Below, piece by piece: positions 30,674-58,033 of a DNA stretch of 64,000 nt. The DNA lies in contig JAHQWW010000003.1 in NCBI GenBank assembly GCA_029856365.1, positions 32,001 through 96,000 of the forward strand, read 5' to 3'. A program made the position numbers and the translations under genes. Position 1 is the first letter of the stretch; each line of letters starts with the position of its first letter. Source of the DNA: Candidatus Hodarchaeota archaeon (lineage in GTDB: Archaea; Asgardarchaeota; Heimdallarchaeia; Hodarchaeales; Hodarchaeaceae). The notes beneath the pieces were generated by a model, which did not search any database, was not told the DNA's origin, and saw nothing but the letters and a program-made list of their open reading frames with translations.

Positions 30674-31588
30674 TTAACCCAAAAAGAAGAGAATTACAGC
30701 ATATATTATTGCAATGATAACCGCATGTGACCCCTCTGGATCAATTGACTTAACAGCAAAATAAACCAGCACAATACCCCAAATAAGGAAAATAATATCT
30801 ATAAAGAAGAGAATATCCCCCACTATCCCAAGAGGAGTACTCATTGCTGAAAAATCCAATATATCATTGATTATGATAGTTGATGGTTCAATAAAAAGAG
30901 CAAAAGCGGCAAGTCGAACCAGTTCATTGAAAATTCTAGGAAGAAAACTCCAACCCACGATAGATATCATAGTTTTAAAGTTTCTTTCATGTGATGGAAC
31001 TCGGGACGAGAATATTGCATGTAAGATCCACAGGACAATACTTCCAACCAACCAAGTAATAAAAAATCCAAAAGGAGTAAAAAATGCAGATAATATCGTA
31101 AGAAATTGCATAAATTCTTCCATTTCAATATCCATCCCTGACAAACCCAAGCTCTCAAAGAAAGAAGAAGAGAATTCAATTGTAGTCTTTAAGGTAAGAA
31201 CATAAAGAGCTAAACCTGAAACAATTCCAGCTATTAGAACAATAAGAAATGGTTGGCTTAAGTTTGGTCGTTTAACAATCCGAGGCATCTCCAATTGAGG
31301 AGACATCAATACTCCTTGAAAATGTTGAGTAAATGGTAGAGCTGGTTCCCTCACTATTTTTTCAGGTCTATATGAAGGTGGATAAGTAGGAGTACCTCTA
31401 TCAGAAACAGTTGGAGGGATTGATGTATGTGGAAAGGAAGGTTTCGCTCTGACCACTCCAGTTGAATCAATGGTTGGAACTGGAGTGCCACAGTATGCAC
31501 AAAAAGTAGCTCCCCCTAGTAGCTTCTGACCGCAATTTCCACAAAATTTTGGAGCTGTTTCAGGAATATCTTTACTCATGAAAATCAA
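30674..31588 (-). CDS. zinc-ribbon + Yip1-domain membrane protein
   Basis: CGNCG/CAYCG, Pro-rich linker, then about 5 TM helices with 'IVGWSFLP'. Confidence 0.82.
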   Translation of the reverse strand: MIFMSKDIPETAPKFCGNCGQKLLGGATFCAYCGTPVPTIDSTGVVRAKPSFPHTSIPPTVSDRGTPTYPPSYRPEKIVREPALPFTQHFQGVLMSPQLEMPRIVKRPNLSQPFLIVLIAGIVSGLALYVLTLKTTIEFSSSFFESLGLSGMDIEMEEFMQFLTILSAFFTPFGFFITWLVGSIVLWILHAIFSSRVPSHERNFKTMISIVGWSFLPRIFNELVRLAAFALFIEPSTIIINDILDFSAMSTPLGIVGDILFFIDIIFLIWGIVLVYFAVKSIDPEGSHAVIIAIIYAVILFFLG

Positions 31589-31868: not shown

Positions 31869-32186
31869 TTAGCCTGATCTGTCTTTTAAAACAACAATAG
31901 TGAAGCCAGCTGCTTCGTCAGGGGTGATGATTATTTCTGATTTAGGCATCTCTACGTATACACTTTGAAGTCGTCCATGATCGAGGGCATCTGAAACACT
32001 ACGAACCTTTTTTACTAGTGAAGCCACATGAGCAGATACTCTTTCGGCATCTGACTGTGGAAGATTACTTTGGAGTGGCAAACCATCTTCATCACAAACC
32101 AGTATCCCTTTAACCCCACGTCGTGCGGCTAATCTTTTAATTGTGTTCTGTAACACCGAGGGAATTACATATTCATCATTTGACAT
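31869..32186 (-). CDS. roadblock/LC7 protein (dynein light chain roadblock-like)
   Basis: 'TIKRL...GVKGILVCDEDGLPLQSNL...KVRSV...EIIITPD'. Confidence 0.92.
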   Translation of the reverse strand: MSNDEYVIPSVLQNTIKRLAARRGVKGILVCDEDGLPLQSNLPQSDAERVSAHVASLVKKVRSVSDALDHGRLQSVYVEMPKSEIIITPDEAAGFTIVVLKDRSG

Positions 32187-32202
32187 TTGATCACATTCCT
32201 CT

Positions 32203-32550
32203 TTAATCCTTGGACGTTAGTGTCATTTTACTGCTCTCCCGTTTCACTAACGCCACAATAATAATTTCTGAGTCATAATCAGGGATTATCTCAACATCAC
32301 CTACTTCCAATTCTAACCGTACGCTTCGAGCTTCTTCTTGTGAGATTTCCCTAGAAATACTTCTCACCTTCCCCACCAAAGAGGCAACGTGAGCAGCCAC
32401 TCTCTCTGTATCCTCTTCAGGAAGAGAAGATTGGAGTGGTAAACCATCTGTATCACTTAATACGGCACCATATACTCCCTTATGCTTTCCGACTGATTCA
32501 ATGACCTTCTCCAACGCCTGTTGTGATAAATACCCTGCTTCTTGTGCCAT
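32203..32550 (-). CDS. roadblock/LC7 protein, tandem paralog
   Basis: 'HKGVYGAVLSDTDGLPLQSSL...AHVASLVGKVRS...EIIPD'. Confidence 0.92.
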   Translation of the reverse strand: MAQEAGYLSQQALEKVIESVGKHKGVYGAVLSDTDGLPLQSSLPEEDTERVAAHVASLVGKVRSISREISQEEARSVRLELEVGDVEIIPDYDSEIIIVALVKRESSKMTLTSKD

Positions 32551-32735: not shown

Positions 32736-33185
32736 ATGTTGGACTCACAAGAAAGTGATAGCAGCAAATCTTCAGATAAAAAGCTAGATGAAATTCTGTC
32801 AACGATCAAAAACTTAGGAAATCGTATCAAAACCCTAGACCACAGGATTTCTCGACTTGAGGGACGTATCGACCTCCAATTGTCTAGTGTAATAGAATCT
32901 AGTGAGTCAAAATCAACAGAAAGAAAAATTAAACTAGATAGTTTTGATGAATTGGATGAGCATCTAAAGCGTACATATCAAACTTTAGCAACAGCTCAAA
33001 AACCGATGGATGCCTCAGAACTCGCGGAACGAATGGGCCGAAGTCGCAGCACCACTAGTTATCATCTTAACCAGCTTGAGAAGATGGGTGTTCTTGAAAA
33101 AATTCCAAGTCCAAAAGATAGGTCAAGAAATGTCTTTTTTCGTCCTAAGGGTAGCTCTTTTGAGCTGATAGACTCTAAAAAATAA
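32736..33185 (+). CDS. coiled-coil + HTH (ArsR-like) regulator
   Basis: N-terminal heptads; 'ASELAERMGRSRSTTSYHLNQLEKMG'. Confidence 0.85.
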   Translation: MLDSQESDSSKSSDKKLDEILSTIKNLGNRIKTLDHRISRLEGRIDLQLSSVIESSESKSTERKIKLDSFDELDEHLKRTYQTLATAQKPMDASELAERMGRSRSTTSYHLNQLEKMGVLEKIPSPKDRSRNVFFRPKGSSFELIDSKK

Positions 33186-33225: not shown

Positions 33226-33774
33226 TTATTCAGAAGTAAAATCTAGTATCTTTGTTCCCAGCTGGTTAAAGGCAGCTTGTACACCCTCACCAGTTTTCGC
33301 ACTGGTTTCAATGAAATTCAGCCCTAAACGGTCAGCAAGTGCTTTACCTTCATCTGTAGATACTGTTTCGGTTCCTTCCTCACGTAAGTCACTTTTATTT
33401 GCGAGGAGGATTACGGGAACGTCCCTATCACGTTTGGAATTTTCTCGGATATCATTTAACCATTTTTCTACATTCTTAAAGGTTTGATGGCGTGTAATGT
33501 CATAAACAAGAATTCCACCAAATACTTTGGTATAATATGCTTTTACAACATCTTTAAAAACAGGCTGCCCAGCAAGATCCCAGATTTGCCAGCGAATGTG
33601 TGTTTCTTTTACTGTTGTATCATACAAGGCAAAATCTGCGCCCATTGTACTTAGATAATCTGTTTCGAACCCCTCACCTAGGTAACGTTTACGCAGTGAG
33701 GTTTTTCCAACTGCTCCATCTCCAATTAACACAATTTTCCATAAGCGATGATCCTCATTACTCAACAATTCCAC
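33226..33774 (-). CDS. Rab-like small GTPase
   Basis: GDGAVGKTS, YLSTMGADF, WDLAGQ, NKSD, ETSAK; no C-terminal Cys. Confidence 0.93.
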   Translation of the reverse strand: MELLSNEDHRLWKIVLIGDGAVGKTSLRKRYLGEGFETDYLSTMGADFALYDTTVKETHIRWQIWDLAGQPVFKDVVKAYYTKVFGGILVYDITRHQTFKNVEKWLNDIRENSKRDRDVPVILLANKSDLREEGTETVSTDEGKALADRLGLNFIETSAKTGEGVQAAFNQLGTKILDFTSE

Positions 33775-34019: not shown

Positions 34020-35723
34020 TTAAACATAAGATTTAGAATCAGTAGGAGAAATTCGTTTGACATATCCCCGTTTTCGTAATTCTTCTAAACACTCAAGTTC
34101 TATATCTTGATCACGTTTTGTTATTTCTGTTGATGTTTCAGGAGAAAGCACATTGGATGTTAGTAGAGCTCTAATGGTTGGCCGTAATTTTTCTGGCAGA
34201 GCTAGTATCCCAAGGGTGTCGAAAGGTTGGATTTGAACATATTTAGGGGGTTCTGTACATGAACAAACCTTTCTTCCTGTTTCATCTTCCAGTTTATGAA
34301 GAAATGGCCTTGGATTAATTCCTATTTCTAGCAAATATTCATGTCTAATGTTGTGGGCAGTTGTAAACTCATATAATAACAAATCTTTGACAATAGGGTC
34401 TGAAAAAAATTTTTGAACATAATTATGGAATAGAACTTCAGGATCACCGCGTAGGAGATCCATCTCAGCACCATATGTAAGTATATTCTGGCGCAATTGT
34501 TCATTTACAGTATCAATATCAAAGACATATGGTTCAAAGATTTCTTCTACAACTTTTGTAGCTCCTGCAAATCCACCAGTTTTTCCTGTCTTGGAAAAAT
34601 CATGAATAGCTTCACTAAACTCTTTCTCAAAACGTTGAATATACTGAAAAAGCAATTCAGTCAGGGTTTCGGTCATCACTGGGCTATAGAGGATACCAAT
34701 AACACGCTTTCCTTTTCGTTGAACAATTTTCATATTCCCATTATCAATATAACGTAAATCACCCCGGCGTCCAGCAGTCTCCGAAACCATATGAGCAATA
34801 CTAGTTAACGCTGCTGTTATCAGAACTGGGTTCTTCATTTCGTCCTCTGCCTTTCCAAAAAAGTAATAATACATAGTTGATCCTGATTCTCGATCTGTTA
34901 TAAATATAGCGATGGGTGACGCTTCAATTTCAGTAGTAATCCGTCCAAATTCCTCTTTTTCAGTGATTTCATAAAATTTTTGATTCAAATCTTGAAATGT
35001 TTCATTTACTGGGGAATATGGTTCTTCCAAATAATAGACACCTTGATCTGAAAATTCATTAAGTTCAGAAATCCAAGGAATTATGTAGAAAATGGGATGC
35101 TTTAATTTTGATTCCATCTGTTCAAGCATATATTCAAGTTTCCCAAAAACCACAGGGGGTTTAACCATGTTCATGATTAGCAGAGTCGGAGTGGTAAGGA
35201 AAGATAAGAAGTTCTGAATTACGGATTTTGTCAAACTGAATGTAGGATATTTTTCTGACGAAACAATCCAGACCATGTCACTTTGAAGAATAGCTTCCAT
35301 TGTGATACTTTTTTCTTCCAAATTAGCTGGTAAGATGAATGCGAGAAGATCAATTGTGTCTTTAAAAAAAAGCGATTGTACTCGATATTTTGTGCGTTCT
35401 CTTAAGTCAATTTGTGATATTGGGCATCCTGCAGAAGGAAGAACCCGTACAAATGAGCCTTTATCCTCATCATCAAAGATTGACAAGGACTCACTCACAA
35501 GGGTATCCTCTGAAATTTCGCTTAGGAAATCTGAACTAGTAAAATGAGATTTACCATATTTTAAAAGAGAATATCTTAGCTTCTCGGTGATTGAAAAGTC
35601 GACAACAAGAATCCGGAATCCAGGTCTCGAACGAGCGTAAGCTAGGAAAAAATTTAGTGCTATAGTCTTTTTTCCACAACCAGGGGTACGAGAATAAATA
35701 CTTATCACTTTTGGAGATACCAT
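34020..35723 (-). CDS. degenerate MinD/ParA-like domain + longin + winged helix fusion
   Basis: 'VISIYSRTPGCGKKTIALN', 'ILVVDF', 'LIMNMV', 'IIPW'; central longin pattern; C-terminal wHTH. Confidence 0.78.
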   Translation of the reverse strand: MVSPKVISIYSRTPGCGKKTIALNFFLAYARSRPGFRILVVDFSITEKLRYSLLKYGKSHFTSSDFLSEISEDTLVSESLSIFDDEDKGSFVRVLPSAGCPISQIDLRERTKYRVQSLFFKDTIDLLAFILPANLEEKSITMEAILQSDMVWIVSSEKYPTFSLTKSVIQNFLSFLTTPTLLIMNMVKPPVVFGKLEYMLEQMESKLKHPIFYIIPWISELNEFSDQGVYYLEEPYSPVNETFQDLNQKFYEITEKEEFGRITTEIEASPIAIFITDRESGSTMYYYFFGKAEDEMKNPVLITAALTSIAHMVSETAGRRGDLRYIDNGNMKIVQRKGKRVIGILYSPVMTETLTELLFQYIQRFEKEFSEAIHDFSKTGKTGGFAGATKVVEEIFEPYVFDIDTVNEQLRQNILTYGAEMDLLRGDPEVLFHNYVQKFFSDPIVKDLLLYEFTTAHNIRHEYLLEIGINPRPFLHKLEDETGRKVCSCTEPPKYVQIQPFDTLGILALPEKLRPTIRALLTSNVLSPETSTEITKRDQDIELECLEELRKRGYVKRISPTDSKSYV

Positions 35724-55939: not shown

Positions 55940-56581
55940 TTGAATCAAAATATTCGGATTTTCAAAAAACGCCTCCAAATTTCTCAAAAAAAGTGGAATA
56001 CGGTTCAGGGCCATTCATTAAGAACAGTTAATACCATCTTAACCATCCTTTCGAGATTAAATTTGACTCAACGTCCTGATGCTTTTTCAAAGGCACTTTT
56101 AACTAGATTTACTGACATTCCAGAACGGTTAGCTTATCATCTTGCAGAATTGATAAATAAAAGTATTATAGATTTATATTCTTATATTGAGCAATTCTCC
56201 GATATTGTTCGTGAAATGAGAAAAATAGAGAAAGTTTTTCGGCAAGATTTTTCTCTTATGGCTAGAAAACAAGTGATAGGAGGAAATGATGCATGGCCAC
56301 ATGATCTCGAGATCATAGAACAAGCTGAAAGAACTTTCCAAGAAATAATCGATATGTATGAGACTGAGCTTACACTTAGAAAGCAATTAATAAAAGAAAT
56401 ACAAGAATCAATTTCTTTACAGCCCTTAATGATCACTGTTTACTTGGTTCTCTGGACATCAGAAGTTTATATCGAACCTACTAGGATTCATGAACTCATT
56501 GAAGAATTTACACATGTAGAGAAAGTTTGTGAGCGCGTGTTCCAACAAGATTCTTATAATTCCGTTCCAAAATCTCGATGA
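55940..56581 (+). CDS. CINP/C1orf109-like helical protein
   Basis: 'KKWNTVQ', 'FTDIPERL', 'AWP', 'IIDMYETELTLRKQL', 'YLVLWTSEVYIE'. Confidence 0.7.
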   Translation: MNQNIRIFKKRLQISQKKWNTVQGHSLRTVNTILTILSRLNLTQRPDAFSKALLTRFTDIPERLAYHLAELINKSIIDLYSYIEQFSDIVREMRKIEKVFRQDFSLMARKQVIGGNDAWPHDLEIIEQAERTFQEIIDMYETELTLRKQLIKEIQESISLQPLMITVYLVLWTSEVYIEPTRIHELIEEFTHVEKVCERVFQQDSYNSVPKSR

Positions 56582-56599: not shown

Positions 56600-58033
56600 T
56601 TAGCTTGCATGGAATTTAGTTAATTTTAGAATGTTATCTATTGATCCATTATGAAACCCTTTCACTAGCAAGCCCTGAATTTTATCGTTAACAGCGTATT
56701 CGGGTTCACCATTCTCTAAAAATTTCTTTACTAAATTCATTGACACAGTTAAACTATCTCGAGCATTCTTTTCCAAACCTGCAGGACAAATTGCAACACC
56801 TCGTAATTGAGAATTTTGTGGCCCTACTTGCGATATAAAGACACATCGTTTATCTCCTGCAGTTAAGTGGTCAGGCGTATGCCCAATTAAGTCTGAACTC
56901 ATAGATTGAATAGCAGAAAACAAACCTGTGTACAAACAAACTTCTTGTCCAGCTGGACGATGACTCGCGAATAAAGGAAGACCACCATCATCGAAAATAT
57001 ATATCTCTGAATCTGAGAATATCTTATTCAACACGTTAAAACGTTCATCCTCGTCGGAGGGCTCCGATGGTACTGATTCTATAGAATTTCTTTTGATTGA
57101 AGTTTCACATGAAGCAAGTGCTGGAACCACAGAAGTTAAAAAATCATTTGAAGCAGTATTGGGCATAATATTTCCTATTGTGTTAGAGTCTGTCAGAAAA
57201 AGAACAACATTATAACCTGAAATGCTAGAATCAACCACATTAGAAAAAACTATCTCAAATTCTTTTCCAAATGTGTTTGCTATTTGTTTGGATGTGTTGT
57301 TCATGGTTTTAAGATTAAGAGATTTAATTGAAGTCACAGATAAAAATATCATCTCCAGACTTTCGAGTTTTTCAGGAAGCGTTGTAACTAGATTCTCACC
57401 AACTTGGTCAATAGCGCCGTTTATTGCGTCTTCTAAGATCATTGAAGATGAAATTCCATAATACATACATTTAGAGTCGCCAAAAATACGAATTAAATTG
57501 GGAAATGAAATTCCAAATCCAGATGACGGTGTAAGACTTGATATCAAACTATTTAATAGAACTAAAAAATTCTGTCGACCTTTATCGAGAGTACAATCAA
57601 AATGAAAATAACATTCTCCAAAAAAATCCCTTTGATTCGAGTGAAAACCTTTTCCTGTATCAATAAATATAGGAACAATACCAGAAAAATCGATAGAAGC
57701 CATGATTGCTCCTAAGACTCTGAAAATTCCTTCTTCGGAAGAATTGAATATGAATATCAAGAAAAAAGAATTTAAAAGGCTGCATATTTGCGGTATCATC
57801 GTTTCAGAGTCAAGAACAACTACTTGATCACATATATTAGGCGTGAAGGATGTTCCAGTGGTTATAAGTAGCAGAGGTAAGCGAGACTCACTTTTTGTGG
57901 CTAAGTAATCTTTCAATACTTCTAATTCAGTTACCAAATCCTTGCCAACATATACGATTTTCCCACGAGGTCGGAAATATTCCAATATTGAATTTCTATC
58001 AGATCGTGAGCTCAAAGCTGATATCTCTTGCAT
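56600..58033 (-). CDS. inactive FtsZ-like domain fused to C-terminal longin-like domain
   Basis: FtsZ C-terminal-domain pattern at about residues 165-285; no GGGTG(S/T)G; C-terminal 'IYIFDDGGLPLF...LYTGLFSAIQSMS'. Confidence 0.68.
   Translation of the reverse strand: MQEISALSSRSDRNSILEYFRPRGKIVYVGKDLVTELEVLKDYLATKSESRLPLLLITTGTSFTPNICDQVVVLDSETMIPQICSLLNSFFLIFIFNSSEEGIFRVLGAIMASIDFSGIVPIFIDTGKGFHSNQRDFFGECYFHFDCTLDKGRQNFLVLLNSLISSLTPSSGFGISFPNLIRIFGDSKCMYYGISSSMILEDAINGAIDQVGENLVTTLPEKLESLEMIFLSVTSIKSLNLKTMNNTSKQIANTFGKEFEIVFSNVVDSSISGYNVVLFLTDSNTIGNIMPNTASNDFLTSVVPALASCETSIKRNSIESVPSEPSDEDERFNVLNKIFSDSEIYIFDDGGLPLFASHRPAGQEVCLYTGLFSAIQSMSSDLIGHTPDHLTAGDKRCVFISQVGPQNSQLRGVAICPAGLEKNARDSLTVSMNLVKKFLENGEPEYAVNDKIQGLLVKGFHNGSIDNILKLTKFHAS

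Follow-up and report, generated by a model that had tools for sequence, protein, structure and literature searches.

A hodarchaeal protein that joins a degenerate MinD/ParA-type domain to a longin domain and a winged helix, encoded beside a Rab-like GTPase gene

Introduction

Longin domains bind GTPases in TRAPP, Mon1-Ccz1, DENN and GATOR1, as well as in the signal recognition particle (SRP) receptor SR-alpha/SR-beta (SRX-SR-beta). NPRL2/NPRL3 of GATOR1 and Npr2/Npr3 of SEACIT are longin-domain subunits that serve as GTPase-activating proteins (GAPs) for the Rag/Gtr GTPases, and their winged helices bind protein. Dozens of Rab-, Arf- and Rag-like GTPases are encoded in Asgard genomes together with many longin and Roadblock proteins, and which regulator is paired with which GTPase is mostly unknown. 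Here we describe a candidate pair from a 64-kb stretch of Hodarchaeota DNA (contig JAHQWW010000003.1, positions 32,001 to 96,000; the whole stretch is called the window below, and positions are counted from its first letter). The window is archaeal DNA with a low GC content of about 35%. The gene in question, called T here as is its protein, is the open reading frame (ORF) at 34020-35723 on the minus strand, and its neighbour is the gene of a Rab-like small GTPase.

Small GTPases usually have longin and roadblock dimers as their platforms (Levine 2013, as cited in PMC10933270). Longins of the GAP type carry a GP motif in the loop between b1 and b2 and a catalytic Arg finger (PMC12290439). From Asgard archaea, NPRL2-like longin fusions and an operon with Roadblock, Rab-like and DENN genes have been described (Liu et al., bioRxiv 10.1101/2020.10.19.343400), and so have fusions of GTPases with longin and with Roadblock domains (Tran et al., PMC10933270). 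The same study found that the GTPase genes of the cultured Lokiarchaeon are rarely, and generally not, in operons with longin or Roadblock regulators, and the pairing of the two is therefore hard. Cultures of heimdallarchaeia have also been reported (cited in PMC12290439). A MinD/ParA-like domain joined to a longin has no mention in the papers that were searched. The combination of domains in T, its dead ATPase and a helical subdomain with a His2Cys2 set are not described there; the individual folds are already known.

We propose that T is a non-hydrolysing descendant of the MinD/ParA ATPases that would act as a regulator or scaffold of the neighbouring Rab-like GTPase, and we put the probability of this at roughly 0.55. 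The former active site of the ATPase-like domain is degenerate in orthologs and distant homologs alike and still among its best-conserved parts, the domain that follows has the fold of longins, and the GTPase gene stays with T also in a distant relative where the surrounding genes are others.

Results

T is 567 amino acids (aa) long by the ORF list, and its start, MVSPKVISIY, agrees with that of the orthologs. The protein is made of a pseudo-MinD/ParA domain, a longin domain, a helical subdomain with an HHCC set and a winged helix. The N-terminal domain (residues 1-255, 34959..35723, on the minus strand like all parts of T) is a MinD/ParA-derived P-loop fold in which strands and helices are ordered as in MinD. 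Residues 1-265 of nine family members were made into a profile and compared by hhalign with a canonical profile, which was made of the ParA/MinD/Mrp proteins of the same genome and one from a related locus, and the two aligned over 243 columns with a probability of 98.8% (E 6.8e-17). An earlier note on this DNA, made from its letters and ORFs, had pointed to Foldseek against MinD/ParA as a check of the fold. The T model does match MinD of Aquifex (4v03) and Archaeoglobus (1hyq), ParA, CooC1 and FleN there, at E 7e-5 to 1e-3 and TMt about 0.5, and in VIA the domain aligns with BcsQ (Z 8.8), ParA (Z 8.7 and 8.0) and FlhG (Z 7.8) over 189-204 residues.

The matches to family profiles all lie below the thresholds, yet they span the whole profile. 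The Pfam family ParA gives 12.8 bits against a cut-off of 27.1 (residues 5-249 on profile positions 4-244 of 246), the NCBIfam family TIGR01969 gives 17.1 bits against 201.75 (E 0.0024; residues 6-256 on positions 2-236 of 251), and CbiA from Pfam gives 17.4 bits, below its cut-off of 25.4. A CTP synthase (L012) that surfaced in the CbiA scan is irrelevant to T. The ESM Atlas held only MinD/ParA clusters of low score (0.75), and a sequence search of the PDB with the family profile gave nothing but chance matches (transmembrane segments of the acetylcholine receptor, E about 0.1) and the P-loop stretch of CapA. No single parent subfamily is picked out by the profile of the dead domain, which comes about equally close to the Mrp-like proteins (96.5%), the ParA of contig C77 (92%) and the ParA of locus L026 (90%). 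With the MinD/ParA/Mrp family, the deviant Walker A ATPases of the SIMIBI class, T has in common the fold and the order of strands along about 245 residues, whereas it has no C-terminal membrane-targeting helix and instead continues into a linker and the longin.

What T does not share with these ATPases is the catalytic set. In the profile-profile alignment, the signature Lys corresponds to T13 and the Mg-binding Thr to K19, both in the remodelled P-loop SRTPGCGKKT (residues 11-20, 35664..35693), where also the first Gly of GxxxxGK is replaced by Arg. The second Asp of the switch-I DxD is S44 in the remnant DFS (D42-F43-S44, 35592..35600), with the first Asp retained as D42. In the Walker B strand remnant LLAFILPAN (residues 126-134, 35322..35348), I130 stands at the Asp of IFDTPPG. 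Equivalences that are kept include S11, G17-K18 for the GK, T20, N24 and P132, which is the first Pro of DTPPG; further along, N185 aligns to the conserved N of the 'NMV' stretch and P216 to the conserved P of 'IP'. The earlier note had read the same from the letters alone: SRTPGCGKKT in place of SGKGGVGKTT with the signature Lys and the Mg-binding Thr lost, DFS for DxD, FILPAN for the DTPPG of Walker B, and a fold pattern retained through NMV and IP. The alignments bear it out on each of these.

The degenerate motifs, whose conservation in orthologs the same note had put forward as a check, are common to all 23 aligned orthologs (45-86% identity), and the same state is found in full-length homologs at 20-31% identity (P0066, P0067, P0068, P0086 and P0082, the last still more eroded than the others). 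The deviant Walker A motif xKGGxGK[ST] with its signature Lys is absent from all of them, and the two Gly that usually follow the Lys position are P and G/S throughout. At the position of the Mg-binding Thr there is no conservation: the orthologs have K or Q, the distant homologs S, K, R or T. The second switch-I Asp is G, N or E in the latter, and no family member has an acidic residue at the Walker B Asp; the Pro that follows this strand (P132) is invariant. The P-loop of P0066, from a Thorarchaeota metagenome-assembled genome (MAG), reads GCGRST. P0086 retains GKT but has neither the signature Lys nor a Walker B Asp. The losses of catalytic residues appear, from this distribution, to be old.

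Among the orthologs, the majority residue has a mean frequency of 0.83 in the P-loop (residues 9-24) and 0.82 in the switch-I region, which makes these remnants the best-conserved stretches of an N-terminal domain that averages 0.71 and has 42 invariant columns of 255. The domain is conserved roughly on par with the rest of T, and is therefore under selection and not decaying; the variable linker behind it (residues 256-269, 34917..34958) has a frequency of 0.39, not one invariant column and a low predicted local distance difference test (pLDDT) score. Since the degenerate P-loop is among the most conserved parts, it is a working, re-used site and not a relic. We read T as a MinD/ParA-type pseudo-enzyme in which strong selection still acts on the former active site, and predict that it does not hydrolyse ATP.

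The linker leads to a domain (residues 270-400, 34524..34916) whose secondary structure in the model, as assigned by DSSP, is E272-277, E283-288, H299-316, E325-327, E332-337, E341-347, H352-379 and H388-400. This is the bb-a-bbb-aa topology of longins, without the N-terminal helix of Roadblock. In VIA the best matches are VAMP7 (Z 13.0 over 118 aa at a root-mean-square deviation (rmsd) of 2.8), Sec22 (12.9), CPLANE (12.9), TRAPP (12.8), sedlin (11.9) and AP2 sigma (11.8), followed by Mon1-Ccz1 (11.0), SRX (9.8-11) and a Lokiarchaeota longin (10.4), whereas Roadblock domains reach just 8.0-8.2. By the model this part of T is clearly a longin, as the earlier note had it, and not a Roadblock domain. 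In the orthologs, the loop between b1 and b2 reads D-x-x-S-G-[SAE]-T, with S280-G281 invariant and no Pro after the Gly; the GP motif of the GAP longins (PMC12290439) is absent from this loop in all of them. A loop between a1 and b3, ETAGRRGDL, is also conserved, and within it R319 (R or K) and R320.

Several described longin proteins come close to T in one respect or another. The longin subunits of Rab guanine nucleotide exchange factors (GEFs), namely Bet5/Trs23 of TRAPP, Mon1-Ccz1, CPLANE and the uDENN part of DENN, share with it the longin fold (Z 9-13) and, in the case of T, there is a Rab-like gene adjoining. Unlike them, T has a single longin (270-400) where the subunits of Mon1-Ccz1, BLOC-3 and CPLANE have an array of three, and its cluster encodes no partner of the TRAPPC3 type. 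A DENN reading was tried and rejected, as the match to DENND1A and FLCN is confined to the longin part and VIA showed no DENN core. SR-alpha also has a longin-type and a SIMIBI-class domain in one chain and a small Ras-superfamily GTPase as its partner, but the domain order of T is the reverse, its SIMIBI part is of MinD/ParA type instead of the NG type of SRP54/FtsY, and this part is catalytically dead, so that the likeness is to be taken as an analogy only. Like T as we read it, pseudo-NTPase scaffolds such as AAGAB and CENP-M are P-loop folds that, minus their catalytic residues, serve for binding in the context of trafficking. Their P-loop lineage is Ras-like, whereas that of T is MinD-like, and the longin partner of AAGAB is a separate protein: its pseudoGTPase binds the longin-fold AP sigma subunit. 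The top Foldseek row for T is the AP-1 sigma chain of 9ddt, aligned to the longin part.

Behind the longin lies a subdomain of five helices (residues 401-486, 34266..34523) and behind that a winged helix (residues 492-560, 34044..34250), which had likewise been noted before as a winged helix-turn-helix (wHTH) following the longin. A separate model of residues 400-567 with a deeper alignment reached a pLDDT of 90 and shows the five helices, then C487-x-C489, then the winged helix. Foldseek against the PDB with residues 400-567 gave nothing at E<0.2, and no clear known fold could be assigned to the five-helix subdomain, as the VIA rows cover the winged helix only. H457, H461, C487 and C489 (H457-x3-H461 ... 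C487-x-C489, 34257..34355) do not vary among 37 sequences, the most distant of which has 25% identity, nor do they in the alignments A2 and A7 of distant homologs, save for the shortened P0082. This His2Cys2 set is probably a zinc site that ties the helical subdomain to the winged helix.

The winged helix itself has three helices and a beta wing. VIA matched 211 chains at a Z of at least 5, and those listed, nearly all of them winged-helix domains, cover residues 492-567. The best is that of NPRL2 (8fw5_B, 172-236; Z 8.5, rmsd 1.8, 65 aa), and the second is yeast Npr2/3 (8adl_S, Z 8.1), followed by TFE, MarR and Fur at Z 6-7.5; NPRL2 is ahead of the other winged helices by about one Z unit only. 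NPRL2 chains are also among the few high-probability Foldseek rows for residues 400-567. The third helix of the domain is acidic (DQDIELECLEELRKR) and the net charge is +1, both of which speak against DNA binding by the winged helix of T.

With the whole model, VIA aligned NPRL3 (8fw5_C, Z 8.8) and 8adl_S (Z 8.0) collinearly over longin and winged helix (266-566; 182 residues), at an rmsd of 17-22 Å. With so large a deviation over both domains, it is only the domain order that is common to T and NPRL3 or Npr2/3, and at the level of the model the match shows this shared order and not a proven homology. Going by the model, T has, like NPRL2/NPRL3 and Npr2/Npr3, its longin N-terminal to a winged helix that comes further along in the chain. 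On the other side, zero sequence similarity was found between them; the b1-b2 loop of T has SG instead of GP (PMC12290439) and its Arg pair is in the a1-b3 loop, which may not be the known position of the finger; T has the helical His2Cys2 subdomain and the dead ATPase domain in addition; and its neighbour GTPase is Rab-like and not Rag-like.

T belongs to a family that is near-core and single-copy in the Hodarchaeales. A word-indexed search gave 65 homologs, the full-length ones of 539-578 aa and all from Hodarchaeales or Heimdall-type MAGs, which in the databases, where they are named, are called 'hypothetical' or (JGI) 'MinD-like ATPase' or 'BcsQ'. An exhaustive search added only distant forms of T and many proteins with just the longin in common. 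In a sample of 300 genomes of the phylum (E<=1e-20), the full-length family is present in 18 of the 20 genomes of the window's own genus and family group and in one of two from a second family of the order, and in none of the approximately 277 others. The window's genome has one copy. A scan of genome contigs with the distant homolog P0068 gave zero relatives. P0071 (356 aa), which could be taken for a stand-alone form of longin and winged helix, is probably a truncated call, as its 90% cluster includes the 576-aa P0086. Longin paralogs of T are present elsewhere in the window's genome.

As a separate observation, three MFS-like multi-pass membrane proteins of this genome, two of them in tandem, have a C-terminal longin related to that of T (E 1e-8 to 1e-12). 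They are encoded at L017:244-1899, L021:283-1920 and L021:2026-3372, on contigs C86 and C162. Such transporter-longin fusions bring to mind how lysosomal transporters pair with longin GAP complexes in eukaryotes.

The gene directly downstream of T, 245 nucleotides (nt) away on the same strand, is that of the Rab-like small GTPase (33226..33774, minus strand; Pfam Ras 3.8e-48). Among PDB entries it matches Rab11A best (E 5e-39), with a Thorarchaeota Rab also among its closest solved relatives, which agrees with what the earlier note had said of T as lying directly upstream of a Rab-like gene. This neighbour is conserved: in 15 of 16 Hodarchaeales-type loci examined that have sequence downstream of T, the Rab-like gene follows, with nothing in between in some of them, the window included, and behind an inserted gene that we call X (244 aa) in 7 of these 15. 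At locus L028, a T homolog of 28% identity is followed by a homolog of X (30% identity) and by the ortholog of the GTPase gene. The genes around them are those of the proteasome, SBDS and the exosome, and the GCHY, RibD, Roadblock and Yip1 neighbours of the window are not those of L028. Because the association recurs at this identity in different surroundings, the link between T and the GTPase gene appears to be more than local synteny.

Proteins of the X family have 196-245 aa (L002:6362-7096, L004:7914-8648, L005:7847-8581, L028:7774-8364). The window's genome has none in the T cluster and two unlinked copies on contigs C167 and C111 (L029:1498-2235, minus strand, and L030:1483-2211, plus strand). 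X has no family in Pfam and gave nothing in the ESM Atlas. A supposed X match in L027 was an artefact, as alignment A3 contained a radical-SAM fragment from that locus. Neither X nor the pairing with ParA genes treated below was in the earlier note, and the same is true for the conservation of the P-loop and the His2Cys2 set.

Beyond the GTPase gene, the cluster continues with a coiled-coil and MarR-type wHTH protein (32736..33185, plus strand; Pfam MarR 2e-10), which is kept in the syntenic cluster of the Hodarchaeales, two tandem Roadblock/LC7 genes (31869..32550, minus strand; Pfam Robl_LC7 1e-15 and 2e-17) and a Zn-ribbon and Yip1 membrane protein (30674..31588, minus strand; Pfam Yip1 6e-16). 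On the other side of T a GTP cyclohydrolase gene, FolE2, is transcribed divergently. Every Hodarchaeales locus that was read has the Roadblock pair and the Zn-ribbon-Yip1 gene next to the Rab-like gene, but L028 lacks them, so their link to T is weaker than that of the GTPase gene. Two tandem Roadblock genes beside a small GTPase gene recall the platforms of MglA/MglB and of the Ragulator type, but T is itself a longin and not a Roadblock protein, and it is the Roadblock genes that are missing at the distant locus.

Further along the window, the protein encoded at 56603-58033 on the minus strand, which had been suggested as a possible partner of T, has no detectable relation to it (hhalign probability 0.3%) and no significant Pfam family. 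Next to it, at 55940-56581 on the plus strand, a 213-aa protein matches PF15011 (C1orf109-like, ribosome biogenesis; E 7.8e-11, above the cut-off). PF15011 is otherwise a eukaryotic family.

Discussion

The scaffold function that links T to small-GTPase signalling is drawn from the gene neighbourhood and from the roles of longins in eukaryotes, and it would involve binding of the GTPase by the longin of T. The longin, probably as a dimer, would then be the platform for the Rab-like GTPase. The dead MinD-like domain, with no ATP cycling, would be a fixed module for dimerisation or docking, and a ligand or a partner, possibly a canonical ParA-type ATPase, may make its contact at the remodelled P-loop and switch-I region. 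At the other end of the protein, the His2Cys2 set would clamp the helical subdomain to the acidic winged helix, which would bind protein rather than DNA, as it does in NPRL2/NPRL3. In the GTPase cycle T could have the role of a GEF, a GAP or an effector.

A number of observations weigh against T as a non-hydrolysing regulator or scaffold of its neighbour. The confidence of AlphaFold2 is modest in the N-terminal domain (pLDDT 50-70; predicted template modelling score 0.37 for the whole model). A nucleotide could still be held by G17-K18-x-T20 and D42, which T retains. Within the Hodarchaeales, synteny extends over the region as a whole, unrelated genes included, and most loci of this order are therefore not independent evidence; the link across lineages depends on a single locus, L028. 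In P0063, the most divergent of the Hodarchaeales-type set (45% identity), T is followed by a helicase gene and no GTPase gene. T may also be transcribed separately from X and the GTPase gene, because it lies 67-245 nt upstream of the next gene whereas tight coupling, at 0-30 nt, is found only between X and the GTPase gene. Finally, three distant homologs, P0066, P0086 (from a Hodarchaeales MAG) and P0082, are located 0-17 nt after a canonical ParA gene and not next to a GTPase gene.

The residues retained in the P-loop are the basis of another explanation, that T is a nucleotide-binding switch in which the remodelled loop (G17-K18-x-T20, R12, D42) binds ATP, ADP or GTP. Hydrolysis would either not be fast or rely on a non-canonical set of catalytic residues, and the nucleotide state would gate the longin and winged helix. 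The P-loop remnant is, as said, the most conserved stretch of its domain, G17 and T20 are unchanged even in P0066, P0067 and P0068, at 26-31% identity, K18 is invariant in the Hodarchaeales and Arg in P0066, and P0086 has GKT. Some ParA-type ATPases, for example the cyanobacterial McdA, do function without the classical signature Lys. It is on the other hand difficult to combine this with the loss of four separate catalytic positions together, the Walker B Asp and the Mg-holding residue included, with an Arg for the first Gly of GxxxxGK and with the variable residue after K18 (K, Q, S, R, T), and we consider a switch unlikely.

The ParA genes point to yet another function, as an adaptor of a canonical ParA-type positioning ATPase. 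The dead domain would mimic a ParA monomer and pair with an active one, which would tie the cargo of the longin and winged helix to a ParA gradient, and the Rab-like neighbour would be secondary. The ParA genes in front of P0066, P0086 and P0082, which have the same architecture as T, are found at L026:5184-5984, L042:5093-5902 and L045:967-1794, and they all belong to one subfamily with HSYKGGTGK[TS] near the N-terminus and CxC[DE][IV][AS] near the C-terminus. One ParA of this subfamily is encoded in the window's genome, on contig C77 (L008:1012-1839, minus strand), where it follows the gene of a 228-aa coiled-coil and wHTH protein (L008:1847-2533, minus strand) that is built like the gene at 32736-33185 in the window. 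The window's own clade, however, has no adjacent ParA gene and does have the adjacent GTPase gene, the tandem ParA gene may merely mark the duplication that gave rise to the dead copy, and an ATP-sandwich heterodimer, given the missing signature Lys, would be one-sided. We regard the adaptor as doubtful, and as somewhat less credible than the switch. It should be said that the scaffold or regulator, the nucleotide switch and the partner of ParA are not mutually exclusive.

That T is a DNA-binding regulator or partition protein, whose winged helix binds DNA and whose ParA-like domain was left over from ParA/ParB-type partition, is very improbable: ParA-type proteins do often bind DNA and the winged helix also matches DNA binders of the TFE, MarR and Fur type, but its recognition-position helix is the acidic one, its best structural matches are the protein-binding winged helices of NPRL2 and Npr2/3, T itself has no Pfam HTH match, and longin domains are not known to act in DNA binding.

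Returning to T as a regulator or scaffold of its Rab-like neighbour, a bolder form can be imagined, in which T, X (where present) and the Rab-like GTPase are a new kind of archaeal small-GTPase regulatory complex, with a dead ParA/MinD ATPase as the docking part of an NPRL2/3-like regulator of longin and winged helix. We offer this tentatively and think that the odds are well against it. If it were true, ParA-type spatial systems would be wired to eukaryote-like Rab signalling in an order that some think is closest to the eukaryotes, and the module together with the Roadblock pair and Yip1 could be a full set of GEF, GAP and membrane receptor for one Rab-like GTPase.

Conclusions

T is a clean natural case of a MinD/ParA ATPase that appears to have been turned into a pseudo-enzyme. 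As a near-core longin gene that keeps its Rab-like neighbour across a deep divergence, it points to one specific and testable pair of regulator and GTPase among the many of the Asgard archaea, with X, the two Roadblock proteins and Yip1 as further candidates. The order of its longin and winged helix appears to be the same as in NPRL2/3 of GATOR1, and T may in that way bear on the origin of longin-based GTPase regulators.

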